From an uncultured Alphaproteobacteria bacterium (GTDB lineage: Bacteria > Pseudomonadota > Alphaproteobacteria > SHNJ01): a stretch of DNA of 64,000 bases. The notes under the pieces were generated by a model, which was given only the letters and a program-made list of their open reading frames with translations, searched no databases and was not told the origin of the DNA. Shown here in pieces: positions 32,031-46,804 of this stretch. A program made the translations under genes and the position numbers. Location of the stretch: NCBI GenBank assembly GCA_964647725.1, contig CAZYJI010000001.1:74264-138263 (forward strand), written 5' to 3'. The first letter of the stretch is position 1; each line of letters starts with the position of its first letter.

Positions 32031-32051
32031 TGGTGCCGGAAGAGGACTCGA
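32031..32051. repeat. attL-like direct repeat (copy of tRNA-Leu 3' end, 1 indel)
   Basis: Sequence tggtgccggaagaggactcga matches 46718-46740 apart from one missing C. Confidence 0.75.
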
Positions 32052-32324
32052 TTAAGGCGTCTAAACTATTGATATTTATCATGATAATAGTATGATAAAT
32101 ATATAGTACCCCCACCGATACCCCCAGTAACATTAGCTGCCAGTATGGCACCAAGTTCTGGCAAGGCAGTAAACATCATGGGGTTTTGAAAGTCAATTTG
32201 TATCGGCCTTTTTTATTTTATCACCCCACCCCCGTGGCAGGAGGGGGGCGGGCAAAATCACTTTCCTGCCACCGATCTACAAAGCATCCCGCGAGGATTT
32301 TTAAAATTTTAAAATTGGCCTGCG

Positions 32325-32750
32325 ATGGAACAGATGACCGACTTCCCCTACCGTAGATTCGTTCAAATACCGATGCAACTGGTCATGTGCCACGACATGC
32401 ACGGCTCGGCCATGAAAACTTACGGTGCTCTATGCCTATTCGCGAATAAGAAGAACATATGCTGGCCCTCCATCCACACCCTCGCCCGCATCACAGGACT
32501 TTCTAAACGGCAAATAGCACGGCATTTGAAGGCGCTGGAGAAGAAGGAACTCATCATTATAAAACGGCGAGGTAAAAGCAGAGGCAAGCGCGGCGCAACC
32601 AGTGTCTATAAACTGGCTTTTGATTTTCGTGGCTCTTCCTTCATTTGGCAGCAAATTATGGCGGGCAGGCGACATGTATGGCAGGGAGAACCAAAAACAA
32701 ATCGGAAGACATGCGAATCTGAAGAAGGTTTGGGGGTCGTACACCTCTAA
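32325..32750 (+). CDS. Winged-helix HTH_36-like protein (island replication/regulatory protein)
   Basis: Motif ICWPSIHTLARITGLSKRQIARHLKALEKKELIIIKRRGK, the HTH_36 pattern common in integrative elements. Confidence 0.6.
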   Translation: MEQMTDFPYRRFVQIPMQLVMCHDMHGSAMKTYGALCLFANKKNICWPSIHTLARITGLSKRQIARHLKALEKKELIIIKRRGKSRGKRGATSVYKLAFDFRGSSFIWQQIMAGRRHVWQGEPKTNRKTCESEEGLGVVHL

Positions 32751-32893
32751 ATCATTGATTTACCTTGCAACCGTCGCGCGGGGATGAGTGCGCAGATATA
32801 ACAGCCTGTATTTGCCATTTTGTTGCTGTGTCCGCTCTGTACTCTTCCCATGCTCCTCCCATTCTTTCTTAGAAGTTAAGGGGCACAAGTAAA

Positions 32894-33160
32894 TTATTTT
32901 TTCTCAGTCAACGCTAGCAGTTCTTCCAGTTTTTCGGGATAGTCCAGGCCGAGAAAGTGTAGATAATCTAGAAACTCGAGCGCATCCATTCTGCGCTCGA
33001 ATCGCTCTATCTTTGACAATTGCCATTGGCCCAGGCCGGTCTGTTCGGCGATATCATTTTGCTTGATTCCCTGTTTTTTGCGCTCTTCCACCAGCCAATT
33101 GAGCAGGCGGCGGTAGCGCTTATCGTAAATCGTTGCAATCCTTGATTTTGTCTTGGCCAT
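32894..33160 (-). CDS. XRE-family HTH transcriptional regulator (island repressor candidate)
   Basis: HTH region LVEERKKQGIKQNDIAEQTGLGQWQLSKIERFER. Start taken at the internal Met (MAKTKS). Divergent from the lipoprotein operon. Confidence 0.65.
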   Translation of the reverse strand: MAKTKSRIATIYDKRYRRLLNWLVEERKKQGIKQNDIAEQTGLGQWQLSKIERFERRMDALEFLDYLHFLGLDYPEKLEELLALTEKK

Positions 33161-33232
33161 ACCCCTAGGGTTGCATGCCATTATAGCATATGCCAAAATA
33201 GCCAATATTTCACATAAATACGGGGTTAAATT

Positions 33233-33844
33233 ATGATTAGAGCAATAACTTTGGCGGCTATCTTATTATTAAGCGGATGCGTAACCACGCAGCGTTACGC
33301 GCAAAACTACACAACTATTGGCGAAGATCAGCAGGTTTGTGAACAGATTAATAAAGGTTTTCCGGAAATGGTGGATTGCCTCAATGAAAAAGTGACCCTT
33401 AAAGCCACGCAGCGAGGGCCGGATGTTGACTTGCAGCTGGCATATGTCACTAGGGCGCGCGCACTAGCGCAGAAAGTGCGCGACGGAAAGATTAGTGATA
33501 GCACCGCGCGCAAAACATTGGCCAAAGAGAAAGTTATCTTAGACGATCGCCTGGCCGAACGGCAAAATCAATATTATGAATCGCAACGACAAAAAGCGGC
33601 TGCGCCGGTACCAACCAACACTGACAATTTAGCTATTTTAAACTGCATTCAGGCCGCCAATTTAATTCCAAGATCGGGCGTAGGAGGTCCGGCTGCCGCT
33701 ATTGCTTCGTGCCACGAGAATCCTTATCGAGCAGAAGATAGATTTCAGCGGGAAAAAGAAGATATGGATCGCCGAAATCGAAAAATGATATGCAAGCCAG
33801 ATTACGCCGGTAAAGCTTTAGAATGTAGTGAGGAACCATTTTAG
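33233..33844 (+). CDS. Hypothetical Cys-rich lipoprotein
   Basis: Lipobox LLLSGC at residues 12-17 and several paired cysteines in the mature part. First gene of a three-gene + strand module. Confidence 0.55.
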   Translation: MIRAITLAAILLLSGCVTTQRYAQNYTTIGEDQQVCEQINKGFPEMVDCLNEKVTLKATQRGPDVDLQLAYVTRARALAQKVRDGKISDSTARKTLAKEKVILDDRLAERQNQYYESQRQKAAAPVPTNTDNLAILNCIQAANLIPRSGVGGPAAAIASCHENPYRAEDRFQREKEDMDRRNRKMICKPDYAGKALECSEEPF

Positions 33845-33846
33845 CC

Positions 33847-34089
33847 ATGACACGGAATCTAGTTTATGTTCCCGCCTCTTGTTACGATAAGAAAATATCT
33901 GAAAATTTAAAGTTAGCCCTTCTAAATTTGGCAAACCTTAAGCCTGAAGACTTGAAGCGCTTTACTTTCGTGGAAAGAATGATTCTTATCGACGAAGCCT
34001 TCTATGCCCTTAAGAAAGGAGTCTATAATAGGCTCGATGTTCTATCAGATGAAACAAACCAAAAATATGGTGCTCACGCCATTAAATAA
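33847..34089 (+). CDS. Hypothetical protein (80 aa)
   Basis: ORF 3 nt downstream of the lipoprotein gene. No recognisable motif. Confidence 0.4.
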   Translation: MTRNLVYVPASCYDKKISENLKLALLNLANLKPEDLKRFTFVERMILIDEAFYALKKGVYNRLDVLSDETNQKYGAHAIK

Positions 34090-34188
34090 CGTCTTGGATC
34101 AAGCCAACCCTGAACTCCAGAAATGCAATAGTAATGGCGATCTAAAACCATTTCCCTTATACTATTTGAAAATGTGCTTAGGTGAGCA

Positions 34189-35520
34189 ATGGAAACAAAG
34201 AATTCTTCCGCGCATTCTCAATGCCCTTTAGCCGCTGTTGATAAGCGGCTTGAAGATGCCCATCGGCTTTGGCACCAAGCAGAACAATCTTATTTTGATC
34301 CTGAAGCTTTTCGGTTGGCAGCTCAGAACACCATACAGACTCTGCGCACCGTTTCTTTCGTTCTGCAAAATCATAAGCGGACAATACCAGACTTCGATCA
34401 ATGGTATGGCTCGCAACAAGAAAAGATGCGTGCCAATCCGTTACTGCGCTGGATAGTGGAAGCTCGCAATAAAATTGAGAAACAAGGCGATCTTGAATCG
34501 CATAGCTTAGTTCGAGTGGAAACCATCGCCTCATATCTCGATAATGGCCCAAGCATTGAAATTCCCTTTGATCTTTTTTCTCCTTCCACTCCAGCTCTCC
34601 TTCGGGAAAGCATCCCCAAAACTCCATTAGGCGATTACATAGTTAAATATGGGTCTTTGCGCATACAACGGCGGTGGGTTGAAAACAGCTTGCCCGATTA
34701 CGAACTCCTTGACGCATTGGCCATCGCTTATGGTCATATGTCCGAACTAGTTCATGACGCTCATCGTCAAATGAGCCTACCGCCGCCTAGCGTTATTAAC
34801 TGTGACGGCACTAAGGAGTTTACGTCACCCATGTTAAAGGGGAGGATGCCGTGCATGATAGGCCATCATGATCCGCGCTCTCTTATTATTTCACTAAAAG
34901 ACGGTAAAATTTTAGAATTTGAACGCAGAGGAATGATTTCTGATACGAAGATCGCGGAAATCGCTTCTGAACGTTATGAGATTGGTCCCGATAATTTCAA
35001 AAAGAATGTAGCTAACATAGAAGAACTAGCAGCAATGTATTTTCAAATTGCTCGTACGCTATTTCTAAAAGATGGTTATCACATAGATACGCTATTGTTT
35101 ATACGCGACATTAAAGTAATTAGTATGTGCGAAATTAGGATGGATAACTCACGACAGAACTATCATATTATGCGCAAAATGGCGGATGAAGCTACTCGTA
35201 TCGGAGCTGACGCCGCCATAAGAATAAATGAGATATGGGCGGCTCCCGCCAATGAATTGAGCCAGTATCAACGACCAGCTGAATATGTAGGTCGCAAGGA
35301 AGGACTCGCCTTATTTTTGGTAGGGAAAACAGGGCATCCTATTCATTTTTACGCTGACATAACAAGAAAAGAAGGTAAGGCAAGTCTCGGAGATACAGTT
35401 ATTCATCACGGTGGCGCCCCTTTCATTTTTGCACCTTTTTATCAAGCATGGGGACGTACAATACCTACAGAGTGGGAGACTCTTGAGGAAACGATGGAGG
35501 GGCTTAATAAGCAATCGTAA
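34189..35520 (+). CDS. Hypothetical protein (443 aa), uncharacterized island cargo
   Basis: Long ORF with no motif I can recognise. Cytoplasmic, with no TM or signal peptide. Confidence 0.55.
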   Translation: METKNSSAHSQCPLAAVDKRLEDAHRLWHQAEQSYFDPEAFRLAAQNTIQTLRTVSFVLQNHKRTIPDFDQWYGSQQEKMRANPLLRWIVEARNKIEKQGDLESHSLVRVETIASYLDNGPSIEIPFDLFSPSTPALLRESIPKTPLGDYIVKYGSLRIQRRWVENSLPDYELLDALAIAYGHMSELVHDAHRQMSLPPPSVINCDGTKEFTSPMLKGRMPCMIGHHDPRSLIISLKDGKILEFERRGMISDTKIAEIASERYEIGPDNFKKNVANIEELAAMYFQIARTLFLKDGYHIDTLLFIRDIKVISMCEIRMDNSRQNYHIMRKMADEATRIGADAAIRINEIWAAPANELSQYQRPAEYVGRKEGLALFLVGKTGHPIHFYADITRKEGKASLGDTVIHHGGAPFIFAPFYQAWGRTIPTEWETLEETMEGLNKQS

Positions 35521-35530
35521 TAAATTAATT

Positions 35531-35995
35531 TTAGGCCGCTTGCGCCGCTTCAATTTCAGCGAGATCCATTGCGAAATCAAAAACTATCTGGATTGGTTCC
35601 GCTTCCACATGCGCATCGTTGTAGCTGTCCACATCAGTTTTAAGTTGACGACAGTCTCCCACTATCGCTTGCCGTCTTTGCTGAAATGATATTTGCATAT
35701 GGTGTCTGGGAGCTGTGCGAATATCATCCCAAAGCACCATTTGTTCATCACCTTTGCGCGTAGAAGCAGGATGCAAGAGCCTTACACGACGCCCTTTTTT
35801 ATCCGTGATATATTCTTCACGCATAGCTGAAGCTACATCTTCCGCGCATTTGCTTATTGCGGCAGAAGCTGGAAGCTCCCAACGACCAGTGCGAATAGCC
35901 CAGGCCGCAATTGTTTTTGCAGCAGCAGGCCAAGGCTCACCCGAGCCTCTGTAGTCCTCAACAATTTTCTGCATTTGTTTAGTATATGTTGCCAT
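35531..35995 (-). CDS. Hypothetical protein (154 aa), downstream of higA-peptidase fusion
   Basis: ORF 10 nt after the HigA-like gene on the same strand. No motif recognised. Confidence 0.4.
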   Translation of the reverse strand: MATYTKQMQKIVEDYRGSGEPWPAAAKTIAAWAIRTGRWELPASAAISKCAEDVASAMREEYITDKKGRRVRLLHPASTRKGDEQMVLWDDIRTAPRHHMQISFQQRRQAIVGDCRQLKTDVDSYNDAHVEAEPIQIVFDFAMDLAEIEAAQAA

Positions 35996-36005
35996 AAGTG
36001 CTCTC

Positions 36006-37142
36006 CTATATGTTTATTGGTCCTGTGTGGCCATATCCGTCGGTAAGTGCGGACTGAATTATAATATGCCGTACTTTTAATTGATGCCTTCTGAATAAAT
36101 CCCATCGTTCCGTGCGCCTTTGTAACTGGCCAGCTACTATGCCTGGATGACGCTTAATTAGGCGCGCAAATCCAATCAAATTCTTTTCTGAATACATTGG
36201 ATCAAGACGAGCTATGAAATGCTTTATTTCTTTTTCCGGAACACAAAAATTACTAGCCGCTTGATTAGCTGCTTTTTCACAATCATTTGTATTGGAAGCA
36301 GGCTCATTTGCTTCAAACTCATCCACCATAATAGAATCTTTGCCATCCCCTCTAAGTACATGCTCAATCTCATGCCGAAGGGTAAACCAAAACCTATCTA
36401 TATAGTCTCCTTTAAGAGAGAGACCTATTACGGGAGAGTGTGCGTTCAGCCAGAAACACACCCCATCAATCTTTGATCCAGGAATAGGTTCTACTATTAC
36501 AAATCGTACCCCACATTCAGATAAAATCCCAGGAATGTGGCGCGCTTCTTCTGGCTCCGTCATTAGTAATTCAAGATTAACTAAAGCAGAACGCAATTTC
36601 TGTTCATTATATTTAGGAATTTGTAACGCAGTTGCCAAATGTTTTACACGAAAAATCCATGCGAGCTGTGCTGAGGAAAGATTCTCACTATAATTTCTCC
36701 GCGCGGCATGGGATAATTTCGGCATGTCATCTAAGGATGTAATACCAAAGAAATCAAGAACCCTAGTTTCTATTACTTCAAAGTTTTTTGAAGACTCAAT
36801 CCAGCCGCGCTTTATCATTTCTCGAACTGGAAATTTTTCACGAAGTTGGGCTTCTTTCCTAATTCTTTCAGGAACAGGATCGACGCGCGATAGTTGATAT
36901 GCAGATTCAAGATTGAGCCAAAATTCCGCACTAGTGCCAAATGCAGCAGCGATCGCTTGGGCTGTCTCCGGAGTGATGCCGCGCTTACCACTTATAATTT
37001 CGCTAATTAAGCGTGGCGGACGACCGATAATTTCGGCAAATTCTCCCTGATTCCAACCGCGCGCTTCTAGCTCGTCATGAAGATATTCTCCTGGTGGAAA
37101 TATCTCTGCTGGTTTTCTTTGTTTCATGGGTCTGTCTCTCAT
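36006..37142 (-). CDS. higA: HigA-like XRE HTH antitoxin fused to ImmA/IrrE-type (COG2856) zinc metallopeptidase domain
   Basis: N-terminus PGEYLHDELEARGWNQGEFAEIIGRPPRLISEIISGKRGITPETAQAIAAAFGTSAEFWLNLESAY matches the HigA family. The C-terminal domain carries an HEIEH zinc-binding motif. Confidence 0.7.
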   Translation of the reverse strand: MRDRPMKQRKPAEIFPPGEYLHDELEARGWNQGEFAEIIGRPPRLISEIISGKRGITPETAQAIAAAFGTSAEFWLNLESAYQLSRVDPVPERIRKEAQLREKFPVREMIKRGWIESSKNFEVIETRVLDFFGITSLDDMPKLSHAARRNYSENLSSAQLAWIFRVKHLATALQIPKYNEQKLRSALVNLELLMTEPEEARHIPGILSECGVRFVIVEPIPGSKIDGVCFWLNAHSPVIGLSLKGDYIDRFWFTLRHEIEHVLRGDGKDSIMVDEFEANEPASNTNDCEKAANQAASNFCVPEKEIKHFIARLDPMYSEKNLIGFARLIKRHPGIVAGQLQRRTERWDLFRRHQLKVRHIIIQSALTDGYGHTGPINI

Positions 37143-37147
37143 AATAA

Positions 37148-37477
37148 TCAGTGATAATCTGTAATTTCTATAACTCTAATCGTTTTCATCAGGGCGGTTT
37201 CATGCACTTCAATAATCAGCCGCCATTGATCATTTATCCTCAACGAATATTGATGCTTACGATCACCTTGCAATTTTTTAAAACGGAGGCCCCTTAATTG
37301 ATGCAAATCCTTTTCATCAGCAACGGCTCGAATAGCCTGCATGACTTTTCGGAACCCTTTGACTATCGGCTGGGAGAAGCCAGCCGTAAATTTCGGATCG
37401 GTTTCTAGTCGATCTAAATCAGCATCATCAAATTCAACTTCCATTTTCTTTATACCCTGTTTTTTTGGAATTGTCAA
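37148..37477 (-). CDS. higB: HigB-like RelE/ParE-superfamily toxin (plasmid maintenance system killer protein)
   Basis: C-terminal region GDRKHQYSLRINDQWRLIIEVHETALMKTIRVIEITDYH, typical of HigB. It sits upstream of its antitoxin with a 5-nt gap, the reversed TA order that is the HigBA hallmark. Confidence 0.7.
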   Translation of the reverse strand: MTIPKKQGIKKMEVEFDDADLDRLETDPKFTAGFSQPIVKGFRKVMQAIRAVADEKDLHQLRGLRFKKLQGDRKHQYSLRINDQWRLIIEVHETALMKTIRVIEITDYH

Positions 37478-37591
37478 GTACGAAATTACACATAATGTAA
37501 AAATGATATATTGTAAATAAAAATATAATCCATATATAACAATATGTTAATCATGTATTACTGCATAGAGGGGGCAAAAAAGTGGTGAGCT

Positions 37592-38701
37592 TTAAGCTTT
37601 TGGACTTGCCACAATGGTTTTATCGTAGCCAGGGAATTTCTGCTTTAATCTTTCGACTGTCGCCCGCCATTTAGGTTTTGTAGGCTTACACACAGTGTTT
37701 TGATTACCAAAAAAACCTATTTCCTTAATTGCTTTTTCCAAAGACACGGCTTGAATCCATTCGATAGGCACGAAATATTCGCAGCGCTCAGGATCGTCCA
37801 AATATTCACGATGATAGCTGGCTCGTTTTACAACATCTAGCACTGGCATTTTGCCCTGGGAGGTGTCTACTTGGAATGTTGCGGCGGGCTGGACTCGGCC
37901 AATAGCGCGACCGACCCCAACATATCCAGAGCCGGGTATATTCACCCAAACACGGTCGCCGGGGTTAAGCAGTTGTAGGGTTTTGCTATACCATCTACCG
38001 CCCCCGCCACAAATGAATCCATATTGTACAGCATCCGCCCAAGACCGCACCTCACTTTCACCGAACGATGAATAAAATTCACCGTTCCAAGGTTCGCTTT
38101 GGTTATCCGGTGCAGTGGCGGCGCTAATTTGAGTTTGGGCCGGGTCTAACAACCAGGCGCGGCTTAGCAATTGATCGTCACCATAATTAAAAACCTGAAA
38201 GCAAACTACATTGATTGGAATATCGCGCTCGCTAAGATAGGCAATTATGCGTTCACTGCTTTCATCTATAGCCGAAGCAACCACAATAATTTGGTGGCTT
38301 TCGTTTAAAGATTCTTCATCCAATTCCTGGTTAAAACGCTTGTGGAAATCTTCCGCAAGATTGCCGCCTTTAGTAAACCGACTATAAATAGCATTGATAT
38401 TCTCGGGTTTTAATTTAGAAACCCAGCTTGCATAGTCAATCGCCTGCGCAACAACTTCGCGCGGGGTGCGGTCTCTCTTTAATTCTATCAATATCAGCAC
38501 GCCATCCGGCGCAATTGCCAATAAATCGATTCGCCCACCATAACCGGTGTCTTCTTGCCGACCAATAAACATCCAATTTTCGTCTAATATCCTAGGATCA
38601 GCAAGAATCATGTCTTCCAGCAATCTTTCGCTGGGCAGAATCGCCTCGATCAATGGCTGGGGTTGTTGACCAACTTTCCAAATGGCATGACGAATGGGCA
38701 T
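37592..38701 (-). CDS. NucS-like PD-(D/E)xK nuclease domain fused to PUA/EVE-like domain (candidate modification-reading nuclease)
   Basis: N-terminal half GGRIDLLAIAPDGVLILIELKRD is the NucS/RecB-type D...ExK core. C-terminal half GDRVWVNIPGSGYVGVGRAIGRV...YFVPIEWIQAVSLEKAI resembles the EVE/PUA-like fold. Lies 5 nt downstream of the MmeI-like gene. Confidence 0.5.
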   Translation of the reverse strand: MPIRHAIWKVGQQPQPLIEAILPSERLLEDMILADPRILDENWMFIGRQEDTGYGGRIDLLAIAPDGVLILIELKRDRTPREVVAQAIDYASWVSKLKPENINAIYSRFTKGGNLAEDFHKRFNQELDEESLNESHQIIVVASAIDESSERIIAYLSERDIPINVVCFQVFNYGDDQLLSRAWLLDPAQTQISAATAPDNQSEPWNGEFYSSFGESEVRSWADAVQYGFICGGGGRWYSKTLQLLNPGDRVWVNIPGSGYVGVGRAIGRVQPAATFQVDTSQGKMPVLDVVKRASYHREYLDDPERCEYFVPIEWIQAVSLEKAIKEIGFFGNQNTVCKPTKPKWRATVERLKQKFPGYDKTIVASPKA

Positions 38702-38706
38702 GAGTT

Positions 38707-41700
38707 TTAGCCCGCTGCTTCTGGCAAGAAACTAATTTTATCTATTTCTTGCATAGTTTTTGCGGTTTCGGCTAGCGCCACAATTATGCGCTGCCAATGA
38801 CGAATGTCTTCAATAGTCAATTTTCGGTCTTTTCGGTCTTTCAGCCATTTTTGTGCAGGCTGATAACCGCCAATATAAAAATCCCAGGCTTCTTGTGGCA
38901 CATTGCCAAAGTATTGAGAGTCATTAATCCATACTTTGCCTTTTTCAAAACGTTGTTTTTTAACTTCATGCAGCCCATCAACCGGATATGTGGTAATTTG
39001 AGTATCCAATCTTGGACTTTCCATTAAATGCAACTCACGCAAATAAGCGCCTTTCTCTGCTAATCCATGAAAAATCTTAGTGTTCGTTGGGTAAGGAATA
39101 TAAGGAAAGTCTGACTTCAAAAACTCAGCATAGCGCTTACGATAGGTGGGGCTGTGGAGTACTGCATAGACATAATCAAACAAAGCCTCTGGCGTGGTGT
39201 CAGGAACTGTTTTCTTGATTTGGCCGAAGATTTTAGGATCGAGATTGGGTCTTCTTTGTTCTTTGCTTTGAAGCCCTTCCCCATAAAGCCAAAGGGGATA
39301 ATATAAACAAATACCTTTATTGCTGATGAAGGTACGGTTATCAATTAGTTCTCTACTAACAAAGCTATAACAATAATCCGGCACATTGTAGGCATAGTGT
39401 CTCATACTCAACAAACCGAGATTCTCTCCCGCACAAAAGTGGCGCATGACTTCTGGTCTAGGCATACATAGGAAACCACGAGATTGCCCCGTGTAATAAG
39501 TCCAGCGCGTATCGAAAGGTCGATAGCTAATAGCTCTGATATTATCAGGATTTAAGCCAGTATTCTTCAAATCATTCTGCGCCCACTCCACCCGCCAATC
39601 TCGCACATCCTTACCCAAATTGTATTCTTGGCGCGCATCTTCTATTGGCAGCATGCTAAAATTTTGAATGGTACGGATAAGATCATCGCGCTTTTCATGA
39701 ATAGTCAATTCATCCCGCGCCGTAACGATACCAACGGAATTGATGGGGAACAAAACATTCAAGGCAAAGCCTTTGTGATATTCAGCGCCTGATTTGTTAT
39801 CTTGGGGAATAAAAAAATAAAACGGCGCACGTAGAACCAGTTGTTTAAATGGCAGTTTGTTAATGCTGCCTATTTGTAGTGCATCATATTTGTTTTCGCG
39901 GCTGCCCCATAAATCGGCATGAAAAACCCTAGCTAGTTGCTTTTGTGTTTTTCCAGTTGGTTTGGCCTTAACCGCGATAATTATTGCTACTCCTTGTTGA
40001 ATATCAAACACATTCTTATCAGGCTTGCCATCAGGGGATGTTTCTTTTTGCTTTGCATTACCGTGTAAATCCAGAACATAGATATCATCAAAAGTGTTCA
40101 GTAAATGCCAGCGCATACCACGAAAAGTAGGATTATTTAGATATCCATGATTGGTTATATAAGCCAAAATTCCTTCCGCATTTTTTTGTATATAATGCTC
40201 TCCGAGACGTATGAATTTTACATAATCATCATTTAGCCATTTGGAGTTTCTTTCTTTAAGCTTGCCCCCGCTAGGCTCCTGTTTATATGCATTCATCAAG
40301 CCCATAATCCAATCACCCTTATTGGCACTTTCGCCACTATAGGGAGGGTTGCCGATAGCCACCATAATAGGCATATCTTTTTTGATGCGGCTGGCTTCGT
40401 TAGCTTCCCGGGATAGCCAGTTGGCAAACAAGGTATCAACATCAGGGTGGTACTCTTCAAGACTGTTCGTTAGATAAACACTTAAGCGCGGAGGATTATT
40501 GGCGTTAGATGGCTTGTAACCGGTTTCCTGTAGCAATAGATCTAGCTTCATATGACACATAGCATAAGAAGCCATTAACAATTCAAACCCGTGCATGCGC
40601 GGCAACAAATCGCGCTCAATATAGCTGCTCCATAAACCCTCTTGTCCTTGGAATTTTTTATAAATTTGTTTAATGATTTCGGCTAGGAAAGTGCCGGTGC
40701 CTGTGGCTACGTCCAGAAGCTGAACTTTATGTACTTCACGCACTTCCATTTTGCGACCAGTTTTAGTTCGTTGATCTTTTTCTTGTGATTCTATTTCAAT
40801 ACTAACTTTACTGGTATCAGCCAGCCCGTCTTTAAGATTAAAATGTTTTTTCAACACATCATCAACGGCACGAACAATAAAATTCACTACTGGTTCCGGC
40901 GTGTACCATACCCCCCGCGCCTTACGGAGGGACTTATCGTATTCCGCGAGAAAAGTTTCATAAAAATGAAGGATGGGGTCGTTCTGTCCCGTGGCTGTCC
41001 CGAAATCATGCAGGATAGATGGAAGATCGGTATAGCGATACACCTCGCACAGTGCGTCGATAATCCAAATAACGCGATCATCTAATTCAGGGCCGGCTAT
41101 ATAATGAAATAATTGTCTTAGAAATGGATTGCTTTTAGGGATTAAGGTCAAGGCCTCTGCGCGGGAAAAATCATGTAAGCTTTTATCATGTAAACGTGCA
41201 GTAAATAAACCATAAGTGATCGTTTGGGCATAGACATCTGCAAATTGTTTCGCATCCATGTCATGAACTAGTACTTTCTGAAATGCCGTTAATTGATCAT
41301 GTAGGGAGGTGTTCTCATTGCTTTCCAAAAGAGCTTTATGAAATACATCACGCATTAGGCGCGCTTTACGCGCCATCATCTCGGCCAATTTTTTAGCCGA
41401 TTTAATCGTTTGGCCTTGGAAAGCAGCAAAATCAATCAAGTGGTCTTTGAGACGATTATAATTTTCAGGTATCGAATTAATTTTCCCAGACGGGCCTATT
41501 TCGCCTATCCGGATCGTTTCAACTTTTTTGCCGTGCAAGAAAAATCGAAATTCAAGATAGTCCGTTAGAATCAAATTATCTAAGCTATCAAAATAACGCT
41601 TTAGTTGATCGTCTTTCTCGGCTTTATCTAGATTGATCCCTATATCTTTAGCCTCGATATAACCAACATCAATTTTACGTCGGGTCAAAATAAAATCAGG

Positions 41701-41856
41701 CGCGCCGCATTCGATACGTTTAGGATCATTTGTCGCCATAACATCCGGCATAATAGCTTCGACAAGGATTTGTAATGCTGGACGGTAAGCATGCTCCCCC
41801 GCTATGCCGGAAGCGTGGCGCTTTTTAAGATCGTCAACATATATATTGAAGGGCAT
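38707..41856 (-). CDS. MmeI-family type IIL (type IIG) restriction-modification enzyme, single-chain endonuclease + N6-adenine MTase + TRD
   Basis: 1049 aa. N-terminal PD-ExK motif (APDFILTRRKIDVGYIEAKDIGINLDKA...YF) parallels the MmeI D70/E80/K82 region. MTase motif I is LLDVATGTGTFL and motif IV is NPPYSG. The long C-terminal region is consistent with a TRD. Confidence 0.72.
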   Translation of the reverse strand: MPFNIYVDDLKKRHASGIAGEHAYRPALQILVEAIMPDVMATNDPKRIECGAPDFILTRRKIDVGYIEAKDIGINLDKAEKDDQLKRYFDSLDNLILTDYLEFRFFLHGKKVETIRIGEIGPSGKINSIPENYNRLKDHLIDFAAFQGQTIKSAKKLAEMMARKARLMRDVFHKALLESNENTSLHDQLTAFQKVLVHDMDAKQFADVYAQTITYGLFTARLHDKSLHDFSRAEALTLIPKSNPFLRQLFHYIAGPELDDRVIWIIDALCEVYRYTDLPSILHDFGTATGQNDPILHFYETFLAEYDKSLRKARGVWYTPEPVVNFIVRAVDDVLKKHFNLKDGLADTSKVSIEIESQEKDQRTKTGRKMEVREVHKVQLLDVATGTGTFLAEIIKQIYKKFQGQEGLWSSYIERDLLPRMHGFELLMASYAMCHMKLDLLLQETGYKPSNANNPPRLSVYLTNSLEEYHPDVDTLFANWLSREANEASRIKKDMPIMVAIGNPPYSGESANKGDWIMGLMNAYKQEPSGGKLKERNSKWLNDDYVKFIRLGEHYIQKNAEGILAYITNHGYLNNPTFRGMRWHLLNTFDDIYVLDLHGNAKQKETSPDGKPDKNVFDIQQGVAIIIAVKAKPTGKTQKQLARVFHADLWGSRENKYDALQIGSINKLPFKQLVLRAPFYFFIPQDNKSGAEYHKGFALNVLFPINSVGIVTARDELTIHEKRDDLIRTIQNFSMLPIEDARQEYNLGKDVRDWRVEWAQNDLKNTGLNPDNIRAISYRPFDTRWTYYTGQSRGFLCMPRPEVMRHFCAGENLGLLSMRHYAYNVPDYCYSFVSRELIDNRTFISNKGICLYYPLWLYGEGLQSKEQRRPNLDPKIFGQIKKTVPDTTPEALFDYVYAVLHSPTYRKRYAEFLKSDFPYIPYPTNTKIFHGLAEKGAYLRELHLMESPRLDTQITTYPVDGLHEVKKQRFEKGKVWINDSQYFGNVPQEAWDFYIGGYQPAQKWLKDRKDRKLTIEDIRHWQRIIVALAETAKTMQEIDKISFLPEAAG

Positions 41857-42022
41857 TATATCTGTGCCATGAGGTTATAATTTGTCAGAAACAATAATAC
41901 TCACGACAATTAATCGCAACAATAATTAACGTAATATTGGCTTCAATAATGTAATTAAGCTTCTGCCTGAAGATCATTACGTTCATTGCTCGGTGGGCAC
42001 AATTTCTATTGCCGATAGATAG

Positions 42023-44128
42023 TTAATTCTTTTCTTTCTGGGCTTCGCTTTCTGCAACTGAACGTTTTTGTTCCCCACAAAACTCACGAATGGCAGCGCG
42101 TTCTTCATATTCGTATAATGATCCATTGCTGGATTTAGCCGCCACAGCGCCACATGCAAGGTTCTCAAAGCTTTCTTGTGTTGCGGGGGCAGTCATTTGA
42201 GATTTATTGGGGACAGTTTCCGCCACGTCCCATTCGTCAGAAAGCGTAGGTTGTGGCGTTGTGGCGGCTGGAGCCTGCCCTCCCTCTAAATAACGCGCAA
42301 AAGCATCTGAGAATTGTGAAATCTCATATCCTTTAGGAGTGTTATAACTATCCAGTCTGACGGTCTTACTTTTAATCCCAAATGGCTTTAATATCATAGC
42401 TACATGGTTCGGGGTTATTGGCTTGTCACGCTTCCAACTCACCCATGGGCGTTCTTCATCTCTGCATAGAAAATCAATCAGAGAGACGGTTGAAATTTTA
42501 TCTCCCAGAACTTCAAAAGCAGCCTTGATGTCCCGAAGCATTTCTGTACCTACACTGGTGACATCTGGCCCTTCTTTTGACAAAGCAATAGCCGCATCAA
42601 AAGCTTTCTTTTGCCACCGGCTTCCTGCCAGAAACGCAATTGCAAGTAAAGGTTCCCAATTATCCGCACCACGGTCTGATAAACTATCTGGTAAAACCGG
42701 TTTGAGTGATGAAAGTGCCTGAATACTATCATCCGCCAGCCTTTTTAGTTGCGATCTAAACTTCTCAAATGAATCTTGGTTTACATCGCGTAATTTCTGC
42801 ACTTTTTCCGATTTTAATTTGCGGCGTAACTCAATGATAATTGACCGGTCACGTAGCGTATCATAAAGATCCCCGATTAAAGCAATAACCTTTGCTCCCC
42901 AAGTACTGAATTTTTTGGGTTCATGCTCATCCCCGACTGAACGAATGACAAAAGCAGTGGTGCGCGTATGCCCAGAATTAATAATGCCACGCAATTCATC
43001 TTTGCCTGCCAGAAAAGTATCAGCTTCGTCTATTAAAAGAGTAGGTTTACATAATTCAATTGTGCGAAACATTGCTGCGGGAGTTATATTAGCGGCAGGA
43101 AGCGGCTTGTTTACTAACCCATTAATTGCGGAAATTAAAGAAGTTTTTCCACACCTTTTTTCTGGGGAGCAGATAGCCAAAATTGGCGCAGTATGAAAAG
43201 CATCAATTACCCAAGTAAACAACACCCATAAAGTTACCGCAGTTTTGCTGTGTTTTGAAAGTATAACAAGAGAATCTATTATTGTAGCTATCTCATCAAA
43301 TAGCGCTGCGGCATCAACAGGTTCTGGCCATGGCTCTATTTCGGGAAAATCAAAGCCGCCTCTATTATGCTGACTTTGGGGAAATATGCGTTGCTCTTTG
43401 ACTTCTTGATCTAAGACAGATCTTCGTATTCCCAAACTAGCAGCATGTCGTGTTCTGACCCGGTCATATTCGATAGGTGATAAAGCGGCCAACTGACGTA
43501 CAATATTGGCTAGATTAATTTCTTCATTGTTAGCAAGTGTCGATATTAAGGGCGCATTTTCAACCCAATCCAAAAGATTTTTTTCCTGAAACTCAAATGG
43601 AAGTAAGTCAGCTAAGTCCCATTTCGGAGGCAAGCCTTCAGGCAACTGAACGATTCTAATTGATTTAGCCCCAATTGTGGCAAGTTGGTTGACTATAATT
43701 GAAGCATATTTTTTCCCTGCTTCATCGTTATCGGGCCAAACGACGGTGTCTCGCCCAGCTAAAGTTGACCAGTCAGTTTTATGCGCAGCTTGAGAGCCGA
43801 AGCTACTTGTTACAATAACACAGTGAGGAAAAAATCTTCTGGCTGCTTCTGCCGCTTTCTCACCTTCCACAATAATTACTAGCGCATCGTGTTTTTCAAT
43901 AATTTCAAGCAGATTATACAGCGGGCGCAATTCTGGAGCTTTAATTATCCAACGGCCATCTAGGAATGACCATGGCCTAAATTCTTTCTCTTCTTTGCCG
44001 CTAGTATTAACCTTGTTATAGCGCGTCACTACAAACGATAACTCGCCTCTTGCATCAAAATATTCCCATGCGCCAGCAAACTCTCCAATTTTAGGCTGCT
44101 GAAGCAGCTTTGAATAATCTTTTGTCAT
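42023..44128 (-). CDS. TOPRIM primase / P-loop NTPase (P4-alpha-like, DUF3987-type) replication protein
   Basis: TOPRIM acidic motifs (IIVEGEKAAEAA, VVWPDNDEAG) in the N-terminal 150 aa. Walker A (PEKRCGKTSLISAI) and Walker B-like LLIDEADTF in the central domain. Confidence 0.7.
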   Translation of the reverse strand: MTKDYSKLLQQPKIGEFAGAWEYFDARGELSFVVTRYNKVNTSGKEEKEFRPWSFLDGRWIIKAPELRPLYNLLEIIEKHDALVIIVEGEKAAEAARRFFPHCVIVTSSFGSQAAHKTDWSTLAGRDTVVWPDNDEAGKKYASIIVNQLATIGAKSIRIVQLPEGLPPKWDLADLLPFEFQEKNLLDWVENAPLISTLANNEEINLANIVRQLAALSPIEYDRVRTRHAASLGIRRSVLDQEVKEQRIFPQSQHNRGGFDFPEIEPWPEPVDAAALFDEIATIIDSLVILSKHSKTAVTLWVLFTWVIDAFHTAPILAICSPEKRCGKTSLISAINGLVNKPLPAANITPAAMFRTIELCKPTLLIDEADTFLAGKDELRGIINSGHTRTTAFVIRSVGDEHEPKKFSTWGAKVIALIGDLYDTLRDRSIIIELRRKLKSEKVQKLRDVNQDSFEKFRSQLKRLADDSIQALSSLKPVLPDSLSDRGADNWEPLLAIAFLAGSRWQKKAFDAAIALSKEGPDVTSVGTEMLRDIKAAFEVLGDKISTVSLIDFLCRDEERPWVSWKRDKPITPNHVAMILKPFGIKSKTVRLDSYNTPKGYEISQFSDAFARYLEGGQAPAATTPQPTLSDEWDVAETVPNKSQMTAPATQESFENLACGAVAAKSSNGSLYEYEERAAIREFCGEQKRSVAESEAQKEKN

Positions 44129-44355
44129 TTTCTTGCTCCCGGGTCGTTAATTAAGCCCAGTTTCTGTAAGGATATTTTTACTTCAACTTGCGAACAACCA
44201 GCAAAACAATGCCAAAGCAGTTTCCCATTTTTTTCCGCGATAGACAAAGAAGGGGATCTATCATTATGAGCGGGGCAACAAGCTTTGCCACGCTTGCCAT
44301 CCCATTGGCCTTTTAGTTTAAGAGTTACTTCTTCTGCGCTATATTTTTTACACAT
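44125..44355 (-). CDS. CHC2-type zinc-finger protein (primase zinc-binding domain, separate ORF)
   Basis: Motif CPAHNDRSPSLSI...WHCFAGC matches the DnaG-type CHC2 zinc ribbon. The stop overlaps the TOPRIM gene start (ATGA). Confidence 0.6.
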   Translation of the reverse strand: MCKKYSAEEVTLKLKGQWDGKRGKACCPAHNDRSPSLSIAEKNGKLLWHCFAGCSQVEVKISLQKLGLINDPGARK

Positions 44356-44401
44356 GATAATCCTTCATGTCGCTGTGCACTGCAACGCTATCGGCATTTC
44401 T

Positions 44402-44620
44402 TTATTGATTGCTGACAGCAACAGAATTTAGGAATTTCTGGATATCAGATACGCGCCACGCAGTAATGCGTTCGCTTAGCTTGACAGGTTTTGGGTATCG
44501 GCCGGTTTTTATGCCTTCCCAGAAGGTCGATTTGCTAACCGGTATAAGCTTTAAAACGTCCGGCAGCCTTAAATAGCCGTCATTATCAAGGGTATTATTG
44601 GTTTTCATAGGTTGCTCCAT
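44402..44620 (-). CDS. alpA: AlpA-family phage regulatory protein / excisionase-like DNA-binding protein
   Basis: Motif YLRLPDVLKLIPVSKSTFWEGIKTGRYPKPVKLSERITAWRVSDIQKFL matches the AlpA/prophage CP4-57 regulatory family. Confidence 0.75.
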   Translation of the reverse strand: MEQPMKTNNTLDNDGYLRLPDVLKLIPVSKSTFWEGIKTGRYPKPVKLSERITAWRVSDIQKFLNSVAVSNQ

Positions 44621-44703
44621 CCAGTTGAATCTGGTTGGATTCTATGAGAGCCGTGATAGGCCCTGGGCGAATTCGCCTAAATAAAAAGCGAATTCGCCTT
44701 TTA

Positions 44704-45345
44704 TTATTCTTTGGATTCTTCTGCTATATACTCCACTGACGCATCAGCATGTTTTCTTATAGTTCCATCATCCATGGAAAACCCACAGGCTTGAATACGG
44801 TTACTTATTTTCCCTACAGCCTCTCTGCTCGGATAACCATAATGGCTTTTCAAAATACAGCCCAAAATTTTCATAAGCGATTTATTTTCTTTAGCCAAAG
44901 AGGCTTGATTTACGATTTTTTGTAATTGCTCTTTAAGCTTTTCATTCTCTTCCATTAAAACATTGCATTGGGCTTTGTAATCTACAGCGGATAATTTCTT
45001 CTTTTCATATGCGGCCATCAATGCTTTCGGAGGCGCGATGCCCCTCTGTATTAGCCAGTCAACAAATTTTATGGCTGAAACAAGCCCTATTTGCTCCTTG
45101 AAAATATTATCTCCAGACCTTTCCATAACCCTCAAGAGTTTTTGTGAGTAACTAGGAAGCTGGCTAGGATAATTAATCACCTTAGTGCCATAAGGATTTA
45201 GATTTATATTATCTTCATCTGGATTATGCCCATATGCCAATAACGCTGCTTCGGAAAGACTCCAATAATCCGAGGCCATCCAATCTTCGTAATTTATGTT
45301 ATGATGAAAAGTATCCAATACTTTAGTTTCGTCAAATTTAGGCAT
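44704..45345 (-). CDS. Hypothetical coiled-coil protein (213 aa)
   Basis: ORF between alpA and int with a central coiled-coil (QCNVLMEENEKLKEQLQKIVNQ). Confidence 0.45.
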   Translation of the reverse strand: MPKFDETKVLDTFHHNINYEDWMASDYWSLSEAALLAYGHNPDEDNINLNPYGTKVINYPSQLPSYSQKLLRVMERSGDNIFKEQIGLVSAIKFVDWLIQRGIAPPKALMAAYEKKKLSAVDYKAQCNVLMEENEKLKEQLQKIVNQASLAKENKSLMKILGCILKSHYGYPSREAVGKISNRIQACGFSMDDGTIRKHADASVEYIAEESKE

Positions 45346-45346
45346 T

Positions 45347-46570
45347 TTATGAGACCCTTTTTCTATTCTTAAATGCTACTACGCGGCCAGTATCAGCAAT
45401 AACCGAATCAACATAATCCGCCCATTGCTGCATCATCTTCTTCCGCTCTGGCAAATATTCAGCGCGGTTATACGCGGCGCGGACACTATTGCGCTCTTTA
45501 TGCGCTAGCTGCCGCTCTATTACATCCGGTTTAAAGCCAAGTTCATTCAATGTGGTAGAAGCAAGCGCGCGGAATCCATGGCCCACCAGCTTTCCTTTAT
45601 AGCCCATCCTTTGCAGCACTTGATTAATTGCGTTTTCGCTTATCATTGGATTTTTTCGCCGTTGGTAAGATGGAAGCAGCAGCTCAGAGCGTCCCGTTAA
45701 TTTTCTCAATTGTTGCAAGAGTTTTATGACTTGTTTGGAAAGCGGTACGATGTGCTCTCTGCGCATTTTTGTGGCATGAGCTGGCATAATCCAGACATTG
45801 TCTTTGAAATCAAAATCCGTCCATTTAGCGTGGCGCAGTTCGCCCTGCCGAACAAATGTAAAAAGCAGAATTTTAATAGCCAGCCGGATTTCTTCTGCCG
45901 TGCCTACAGTTTCCAGCTTGTGCCAGAGTTGAGGGATTTCTTTCGCATTGATGGTTGGATAATGACTCGCCTTATGAGCTTTAAGCGCTCCCCGCAAGTC
46001 AGCCGCAGGATTATATTCGGTGCGACCGGTTGCGGTAGCATATCGAAAAATAACCGAACAGGTCTGCAACACACGATGCGATAACTCTGTTGCATCCCGT
46101 TTTTCTACCTTCCGTATAACGTCCAGTAATTCGACAGGTTTAATGTTTTTGACCGGCACATGGCCAAGAAAGGGAAATATATTGGCTTCTAAGCGCCTCA
46201 AAATCTTGGCGCTATGCGCTTTTGTCCATTGGACTTGATTGGCTGCATGCCACTCCAAGGCAATAGCTTTAAAGCTATTATTGGCGTCAAATTGCGCCAT
46301 ACGCTTATCTTCGCGCCGTTTTAGGCTTGGATCAATTCCATTAGCTAGCTGTTTCCGCACTTCCAGGCGCTTTTCCCGCGCTTCGGATAGGCTAACTTCG
46401 GGATAGGCCCCAAAGGTCAAAAGCTTCTCTTTACGATGGTAGCGGTACTTAAAGCGCCAGATTTTCGAGCCTTTAGGGGTCACATAGAGAAATAACCCTT
46501 CTCCATCCGCAATCTTTTGGGGTTTGGCTGTCGGCTTGACATTACGAATTTTGGTGTCGGTGAGGGCCAT
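45347..46570 (-). CDS. int: P4-type tyrosine integrase (DUF4102 N-terminal + phage_integrase catalytic domain)
   Basis: N-terminus LTDTKIRNVKPTAKPQKIADGEGLFLYVTPKGSKIWRFKYRYHRKEKLLTFGAYPEVSLSEAREKR is the DUF4102 arm-binding domain. The C-terminus has the R...HxxR...Y catalytic pattern (HGFRALASTT...RAAYNRAEY). Confidence 0.88.
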   Translation of the reverse strand: MALTDTKIRNVKPTAKPQKIADGEGLFLYVTPKGSKIWRFKYRYHRKEKLLTFGAYPEVSLSEAREKRLEVRKQLANGIDPSLKRREDKRMAQFDANNSFKAIALEWHAANQVQWTKAHSAKILRRLEANIFPFLGHVPVKNIKPVELLDVIRKVEKRDATELSHRVLQTCSVIFRYATATGRTEYNPAADLRGALKAHKASHYPTINAKEIPQLWHKLETVGTAEEIRLAIKILLFTFVRQGELRHAKWTDFDFKDNVWIMPAHATKMRREHIVPLSKQVIKLLQQLRKLTGRSELLLPSYQRRKNPMISENAINQVLQRMGYKGKLVGHGFRALASTTLNELGFKPDVIERQLAHKERNSVRAAYNRAEYLPERKKMMQQWADYVDSVIADTGRVVAFKNRKRVS

Positions 46571-46717
46571 AAGGATATCCGTTTATACCCCCAACGATAC
46601 CCCCAAATGTGCCGGATGTCAACCGACCCCCTCGGACATCAGCGGACGTAAAAACCTTATTTTATCTATGTTAAAATGATTCTGTCGGATGTCATCGGAC
46701 ATCCTCGGAGGGAGTAA

Positions 46718-46804
46718 TGGTGCCCGGAAGAGGACTCGAACCTCCAAGATGTTACTCACTGGTACCTGAAACCAGCGCGTCTACCAATTCCGCCATCCGG
46801 GCGC
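46718..46804 (-). tRNA. tRNA-Leu (anticodon CAG)
   Basis: Minus-strand read: GCGCCCGGAUGGCGGAAUUGGUAGACGCGCUGGUUUCAGGUACCAGUGAGUAACAUCUUGGAGGUUCGAGUCCUCUUCCGGGCACCA. It has a 7-bp acceptor stem, an anticodon loop UUCAGGU (CAG), a long variable arm, GGUUCGAGUCC in the T-loop and an encoded CCA. Confidence 0.85.

Follow-up and report, generated by a model that had tools for sequence, protein, structure and literature searches.

The integrase of phage lambda is heterobivalent: its N-terminal domain reads arm-type sites (P1, P2, P'1-P'3) located about 50-130 bp to either side of the core, and IHF bends the DNA. Phage P4 (Pierson & Kahn 1987; GenBank X51522) provides the closest described parallel to the locus presented here. 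The P4 record labels its 12-bp tandems 'attP arm sequence repeat'; in the L077 numbering of X51522, a tandem at 441-464 is followed by the core at 518-537, a second tandem at 650-673 and an inverted single copy at 689-700, which abuts the ATG at 701. The sequences of the two P4 tandems are GTGGGGGCACAA AAGGGGGCATAT and TGGGGGCATAAT TGGGGGCATCTT. P4 Int and the IntI protein of PAI I-536 are autorepressors (PMC7286903). In KplE1/CPS-53, arm site P'1 overlaps the -10 element of PintS, and Int and the excision factor repress int (Panis 2010, PMC2951348); the same authors predict autorepression for most tRNA-adjacent integrases. For ICEMlSymR7A, PMC11963761 describes a 283-bp attP with five P (arm-type) motifs of consensus TGKTGGTATC (Verdonk 2019, cited therein), all five of which are required for integration by IntS, and states that IntS represses its own promoter.

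The DNA analysed here is a stretch of 64,000 nucleotides, which we refer to as the window. It contains an island at approximately 32031-46739 that is inserted in a tRNA-Leu(CAG) gene and has a G+C content of 43%, compared with about 50% in the flanks. ARAGORN found one tRNA, the tRNA-Leu(CAG) itself, at 46718-46802 on the minus strand. The repeated core, CCGGAAGAGGACTCGA, occurs at 32036-32051 and again at 46724-46739. The features that define the island as an integrative element are as follows.

32031-32051, minus strand: far-end copy of the att core, being what is left of the tRNA 3' end with one G missing; the exact 16-nt repeat is at 32036-32051.
44402-44620, minus strand: small DNA-binding protein of the AlpA family (PF05930, E 4e-9).
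45347-46570, minus strand: tyrosine integrase of the P4 family, 407 amino acids, with an Arm-DNA-bind_3 (DUF4102) domain at residues 3-87.
46718-46739, minus strand: att core on the tRNA side, formed by the 3' 22 nt of tRNA-Leu(CAG), with the exact 16-nt repeat at 46724-46739.

The integrase gene adjoins the tRNA gene on the same strand. Three domains were recognised in its product: PF13356 (Arm-DNA-bind_3, formerly DUF4102; E 5.8e-29), PF22022 (Phage_int_M) and PF00589 (Phage_integrase). The N-terminal domain matches the solved DUF4102 domains of PDB entries 3ju0 and 3jtz, and the protein shares 42% sequence identity with P4 Int. The adjacent integrase has the N-terminal DUF4102 domain that the initial annotation had invoked as the reader of arm-type sites. 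A Foldseek search with a single-sequence AlphaFold model of integrase residues 1-95 (pLDDT 64) gave no meaningful matches; of this model, the secondary-structure layout alone was used, and loosely.

A related island on a metagenome contig (L001) encodes an integrase that is 87% identical to that of the window and has an AlpA-family gene in the equivalent position. The AlpA-family protein is likely to be the recombination directionality factor of the island or a regulator of int. The other island genes, all on the integrase strand, encode a CHC2 zinc-finger protein, a Toprim/DUF3631 primase, a Type ISP restriction-modification enzyme, a NucS-like nuclease and an HTH/M78 pair. Defence cargo occupies positions 36006-41856 and consists of the restriction-modification enzyme (Type ISP/IIG), the NucS-like nuclease and the pair of HTH protein and M78 peptidase. 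At 4985-9304 of L001 there is instead an HTH/M78 pair together with a patatin/DncV-like CBASS system. Because the cargo of the two islands differs, the same integration module carries swapped defence cargo.

The 20-mers TACCCCCACCGATACCCCCA at 32107-32126 and TACCCCCAACGATACCCCCA at 46586-46605, both read on the plus strand, lie just inside the two ends of the island. They are alike at 19 of 20 bases, the sole difference being C/A at position 9. Each consists of two units arranged head-to-tail with a period of 12 bp. A direct reading of the sequence therefore agrees exactly with the initial annotation, which had reported a pair of 20-bp repeats in the same orientation at these positions, each with an internal tandem. 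On the strand of the integrase, the candidate sites read as follows.

32107-32126, minus strand: far-arm pair of candidate arm-type sites, TGGGGGTATCGG-TGGGGGTA, period 12.
46571-46580, minus strand: a third, inverted arm site, decayed, abutting the int ATG; it reads GGATATCCTT, compared with GGATACCCC in L001 and TGCCCCCA in P4.
46586-46605, minus strand: int-proximal pair of candidate arm-type sites, TGGGGGTATCGT-TGGGGGTA.

The repeats are restricted to the island ends. Allowing up to three mismatches, TACCCCCAMCGATACCCCCA has two matches in the 64 kb, which are the two 20-mers themselves, and the number expected from 100 shuffles is 0.00. The window has four copies of the octamer TACCCCCA, each of them a half-site of one of the two tandems. 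Variants of TACCCCCA with one mismatch are not enriched in the 64-kb window (21 seen, 30 expected). The distance from the end of the left att copy (32051) to the left tandem is 55 nt, and that from the right tandem to the tRNA 3' end (46718) is 112 nt, or 118 nt to the exact 16-nt repeat; spacings of about 55 and 115 bp had been proposed. The int-proximal pair is located 16 nt upstream of the int ATG.

Read in attP order, the window thus has a tandem, 55 nt, the core, 112 nt, a second tandem, 16 nt and the int ATG. The P4 annotation gives a tandem, 53-56 nt, the core, 112 nt and a tandem. Measured from the end of the GGGGGCA unit to the core sequence GAGTCC, the far spacing in P4 is 56 nt, and the equivalent distance in the window is 57 nt; in both, the proximal tandem is 112 nt away from the tRNA end. 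The core is flanked in direct orientation and the spacing lies within about 1 nt of the P4 attP annotation, which bears out the arm-type geometry that had been suggested for the repeats.

The arms contain further elements in addition to the tandems.

32062-32074, minus strand: far-arm sequence, 10 nt away from the core copy, that matches the IHF consensus; TATCAATAGTTTA fits WATCAANNNNTTR perfectly, as a consensus match only.
46594-46622, minus strand: best sigma70-like match for an int promoter, with TTGACA at 46622-46617, a 17-nt spacer and TATCGT at 46599-46594.
46613-46700, minus strand: five RTCCG repeats in the same orientation, at 46696-46700, 46686-46690, 46643-46647, 46633-46637 and 46613-46617.

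The predicted int promoter agrees with the consensus at 10 of 12 positions, again as a consensus match only, and its -10 hexamer is inside the first arm site. A TTGACATCC box is found just upstream of this site and recurs in most homologous loci. The RTCCG copies of the window are confined to the int-proximal arm, where they are partly paired 10 nt apart. In 57 loci, the RTCCG count per proximal arm is 3.32 on the int strand, compared with 0.12 on the opposite strand and 0.38 for random DNA; this repeat class is absent from far-arm spacers. RTCCG-type repeats are also present in P4. They are likely candidate sites for an excision factor (RDF) of the AlpA/Vis type. P4 also has, at the equivalent relative place, the sequence TATCATTAACTTA, which deviates from the IHF consensus at one position. 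A second sigma70-like sequence, TTGATA-16-TATGAT, is located at 32069-32096 on the plus strand; it faces into the island, with 10 nt between its end and the far tandem. Integrase bound at the far tandem might gate this inward promoter, and the match could equally have arisen by chance in AT-rich DNA.

P4 resembles the window in having the same three integrase domains, a tRNA-Leu 3' end as target, direct tandems of 12-bp period on both sides of the core, a -35-like TTGA(C/A)ATCC box upstream of the proximal pair (TTGAAATCC in P4), RTCCR repeats in the proximal arm and an IHF-like site in the far arm. Because the spacings, the RTCCR repeats, the box and the IHF-like site all correspond, the window carries a P4-type attP with a nearly nucleotide-for-nucleotide layout. 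The two loci differ in that the P4 unit is GGGGGCA and its integrase has Arg at position 50, whereas the window has GGGGGTA and Leu; the inverted site at the ATG is intact in P4 but decayed in the window; and P4 carries P4 genes where the window has a defence island (Type ISP restriction-modification and others). Taking these comparisons together with those described below, we put the probability that the two tandems serve as the P and P' arm-type sites in an attachment site of the P4 type at about 0.88.

The likeness to other systems is less close. The ICEMlSymR7A consensus TGKTGGTATC is one base off the TGGGGGTATC of the window, and in both cases the integrase gene is beside a tRNA gene; ICEMlSymR7A differs in being a 502-kb conjugative element with five sites and an excision factor encoded far from int, whereas four intact units are visible in the window. 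KplE1/CPS-53 has its int promoter embedded in an att arm, with P'1 over the -10 element, like the predicted promoter of the window, but its arm motif contains TAAA, its sites are arranged in another way and its excision factor, TorI, belongs to another family. Lambda Int works on the same principle, with an N-domain family and a site sequence that are unrelated to those of the window; transcription of lambda int does not start within its own att arm, unlike that from the predicted promoter of the window.

The int-proximal arm of L001 is nearly identical to that of the window and has the same tandem 16 nt before the ATG; this comparison covers the proximal arm, as the contig stops before the far arm. 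A scan of species-representative genomes yielded 75 further loci from many phyla, with integrases of 32-49% identity. Nearly all of them share one upstream layout: the 3' end of a tRNA or tmRNA gene, which precedes int by about 160-200 nt, is followed by RTCCR repeats, then by the TTGACATCC box, and then by an 8-9-mer particular to the locus, present as two or three direct copies at a period of 10-13 nt. An inverted copy usually abuts the ATG. The units vary with the locus and include GGGGGTA(A/T), GGGGGCA, GGGGTCAC, GACGGTA, GTTGGTA, CCGGGTA and others. Among the 71 loci whose upstream sequence was long enough for the scan, 58% had a tandem pair upstream of int (at least 9 of 10 positions matching), compared with 4.3% of 1370 random windows.

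Far arms were searched unit by unit with the 8-mer of each island, which had been curated by hand before any protein alignment; ungapped searches with the whole proximal tandem missed many of them. Downstream of int, the island's own 8-mer forms a forward tandem in 17 of 66 loci, with a period of exactly 12 in 16 of these, and a reverse tandem in one; shuffled units gave 8 matches in 660 trials. Proximal arms have periods of 10-13 and far arms of 12. In 15 of the 17 far tandems, a copy of the tRNA 3' end (7-22 nt) follows 54-62 nt further on in constant register, and the far tandem of L060 precedes a copy of that island's non-tRNA att sequence, bringing the total in register to 16 of 17. Two candidates were dropped: a tandem match in L034, which looks spurious, and a spurious 20-nt 'att' match in L043. 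Within an island, the two arms always share a unit, and the units differ between islands. Arm-type sites are expected to vary in concert in this way while keeping a set distance to the crossover region. The covariation also answers the question of whether the motif flanks related islands: the same or a co-varying motif is found at equivalent places in the homologues.

Five islands from Micavibrio-like and other Alphaproteobacteria (L060, L061, L064, L065 and L076) have integrases of 32-36% identity and CCGGGTA units. No tRNA was found upstream of int in these five, and a AACGTCTAAACCG-like sequence is repeated at both ends of the islands in this clade. This arrangement suggests that the clade integrates at a site other than a tRNA gene while keeping the arm layout.

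Exact copies of the motif lie mostly at attachment sites. Exact TGGGGGTAnnnnTGGGGGTA has 7 matches in 76 loci (about 1.2 Mb), all of them at proximal or far arms. The exact 20-mer TGGGGGTATCGNTGGGGGTA was found on 17 IMG/VR contigs and at least 120 metagenome contigs. Among the matches listed, 137 could be assessed; 57 of these precede a P4-family int (32-57% identical) by 14-73 nt, 30 precede one of two common tRNA 3' ends by about 55-62 nt, 15 precede a recurrent GGAGGGATTATCCG sequence, and 2 are intact attP-like loci (L083 and L094), in which int comes after a pair of tandems 222 nt apart. Thus, at least 104 of the 137 assessable matches listed are in att contexts, the other 33 having no assigned att context. 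Public far-arm matches were sorted by explicit patterns; an ARAGORN reference of 87 tRNA ends caught few of them. In L083 (5356-5597) and L094 (3336-3577), both of which are viral contigs, the two tandems are directly upstream of int, and from this arrangement we take both to be un-recombined attP, as expected of packaged or circular forms. The GGAGGGATTATCCG sequence is hairpin-like and lies about 65-75 nt after the tandem, with no recognisable tRNA end (L079, L081, L085-L089, L091-L093, L120, L134, L169 and L202); it may be a different, non-tRNA attachment target for this class of arm sites.

With the unit of each locus fixed first, the integrase N-domains were aligned afterwards. The residue aligned to Leu50 of the window integrase (motif KEK-L-L) is Arg where the sites contain GGCA and Leu, Ile, Val or Met where they contain GGTA. 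This rule holds for 57 of 57 intact integrases, which was reached in 0 of 10000 permutations, and for 61 of 65 loci when damaged genes are included. On a tree of the C-terminal domain, the residue class has switched about eight times. At the position aligned to Lys41, integrases with GACGGTA sites have Asp (5 loci) and those with GTTGGTA sites have Ala (4 loci). P4, which was outside the set from which the rule was derived, has GGGGGCA sites and Arg (KEDRLAFG), as predicted. A near-minimal pair comes from Oxalobacter, where L052 has KENI with GGGGGTAA and L058 has KENR with GGGGCAAA. It would be chemically sensible for Arg to contact the G of a C:G pair and for an aliphatic side chain to contact the methyl group of thymine.

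In the attP form, all sites and the coding region of the N-domain share a stretch of about 500 bp and can be passed on together; moreover, most Arg-class N-domains are each other's nearest relatives. Because of this linkage and kinship, the truly independent switches are few, the clear ones being L058/L052, L002 and P4, and the covariation of residue and base is partly confounded. We therefore see even odds for the general proposal that a single rigid attP blueprint (12-bp tandem, about 55 nt, core, about 112 nt, tandem on the int promoter) is common to P4-family integrases of many phyla, combined with a code in the N-domain beta-sheet, in which Arg at residue 50 specifies GGCA and Leu, Ile or Val specifies GGTA, and Asp at residue 41 specifies GAC-GGTA and Ala GTT-GGTA. 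Literature searches found no paper stating such a residue-to-base code, which does not by itself prove novelty.

Several other explanations of the tandems have to be weighed. They could bind another island protein, such as the AlpA-like excision factor or a repressor. Both the window and L001 have an AlpA-family gene, the proximal tandem lies on the predicted int promoter, and excision factors are known to bind repeated sites in att arms and to regulate int in KplE1, P4 and ICEMlSymR7A. However, excision-factor sites are normally found in one arm only and the tandems are in both; the RTCCR class, which is restricted to one arm, is the better candidate for this role. The motif also tracks a residue in the integrase N-domain, with P4 correctly predicted, and such repeats are assigned to Int by the P4 record and by the ICEMlSymR7A work. 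We consider recognition by another protein unlikely. A purely regulatory function, with the tandems serving as promoter or leader elements or as an operator and having no architectural role in recombination, would fit the overlap of the proximal pair with the -10 element of the best int promoter match, as well as the promoter-like TTGATA-16-TATGAT that faces into the island just upstream of the far pair. It is more improbable still, as the far pair is found 54-62 nt from the crossover region across phyla whatever gene comes next, the tandem geometry agrees with that of P4 attP, and ICEMlSymR7A needs all five P sites for integration.

That the tandems reflect chance similarity or a generic interspersed (REP-like) repeat deserves mention, because octamers with runs of G and C are of low complexity and the counts given above cover the 64-kb window rather than the whole source genome. 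The chance expectation for TACCCCCAMCGATACCCCCA is nevertheless 0, with no other copies in the window; all 7 exact matches in about 1.2 Mb of homologous loci are at att arms, as are, in att contexts generally, at least 104 of the 137 public matches assessed among those listed. A REP/BIME-like repeat is effectively refuted by the presence of two sites in 64 kb and by the location of matches elsewhere at att arms. The objection that the motif might be a generic repeat, which had been raised together with the initial proposal, therefore carries little weight: there are no further copies in the 64 kb, and the matches in other loci and public contigs are mostly at att arms. Equally negligible is a function as replication-origin iterons for the Toprim/DUF3631 primase, comparable to the P4 ori/crr repeats. 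The island does encode a P4-alpha-like primase module, and P4 has short ori repeats, but the type-1 ori repeats of P4 are of a different sequence class and are annotated apart from the arm repeats. Origin iterons cluster near or within replication genes; the tandems are found solely at the two island ends, in register with the core, and they co-vary with the integrase and not with the primase, which differs between the window and L001.

If the tandems are arm-type sites, as we favour, recombination of the island can be pictured as follows. Excision would join the ends to give, in order, the far tandem, a 55-nt AT-rich spacer with the IHF-like site, a core of 16-22 nt, 112 nt, the proximal tandem, 16 nt and the ATG. 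The Arm-DNA-bind_3 N-domain would bind each TGGGGGTA unit, the same protomers would bind and cut the core through their C-terminal domains, and the bridging of arm and core over bent DNA would assemble an intasome that integrates into tRNA-Leu. For excision, the intasome would act together with an excision factor, probably the AlpA-like protein. We infer the physical binding, the role of IHF and the role of the excision factor from homology and sequence comparison. Integrase on the proximal pair would also repress int: because this pair covers the predicted -10 region and the 5' leader, its occupancy should repress transcription. By analogy with the autorepressing integrases described above, we lean towards negative autoregulation of int.

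The recombination hardware of the island looks largely intact in sequence. Signs of decay are seen at two places, the third inverted site at the ATG and the far tRNA remnant (32031-32037), which reads CCGGCACCA compared with CCGGGCACCA in the tRNA and has lost one G. As both the third site and the far att remnant are affected, the element may be partly disabled, and the decayed site and the 1-nt deletion hint that it is ageing.

The tandems are a known kind of site in a textbook arrangement, and no new mechanism is involved; there is some novelty, confined to the apparent residue-to-base code and to the rigidity of the blueprint across phyla. For the island described here, they fix both boundaries independently of the tRNA repeat, as the initial annotation had argued, and they identify the element as a P4-type integrative island with defence cargo. 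For P4-family islands in general, the distal end is marked precisely by a far tandem of the island's own motif that precedes a tRNA remnant by 54-62 nt, and this marker works even with a core repeat of only 7-10 nt. The motif class is perhaps predictable from one or two integrase residues, which would be useful in island annotation. If the code is true, arm sites, the far ends of islands and cross-talk between integrases would be predictable from protein sequence alone, and single substitutions could reprogram specificity.
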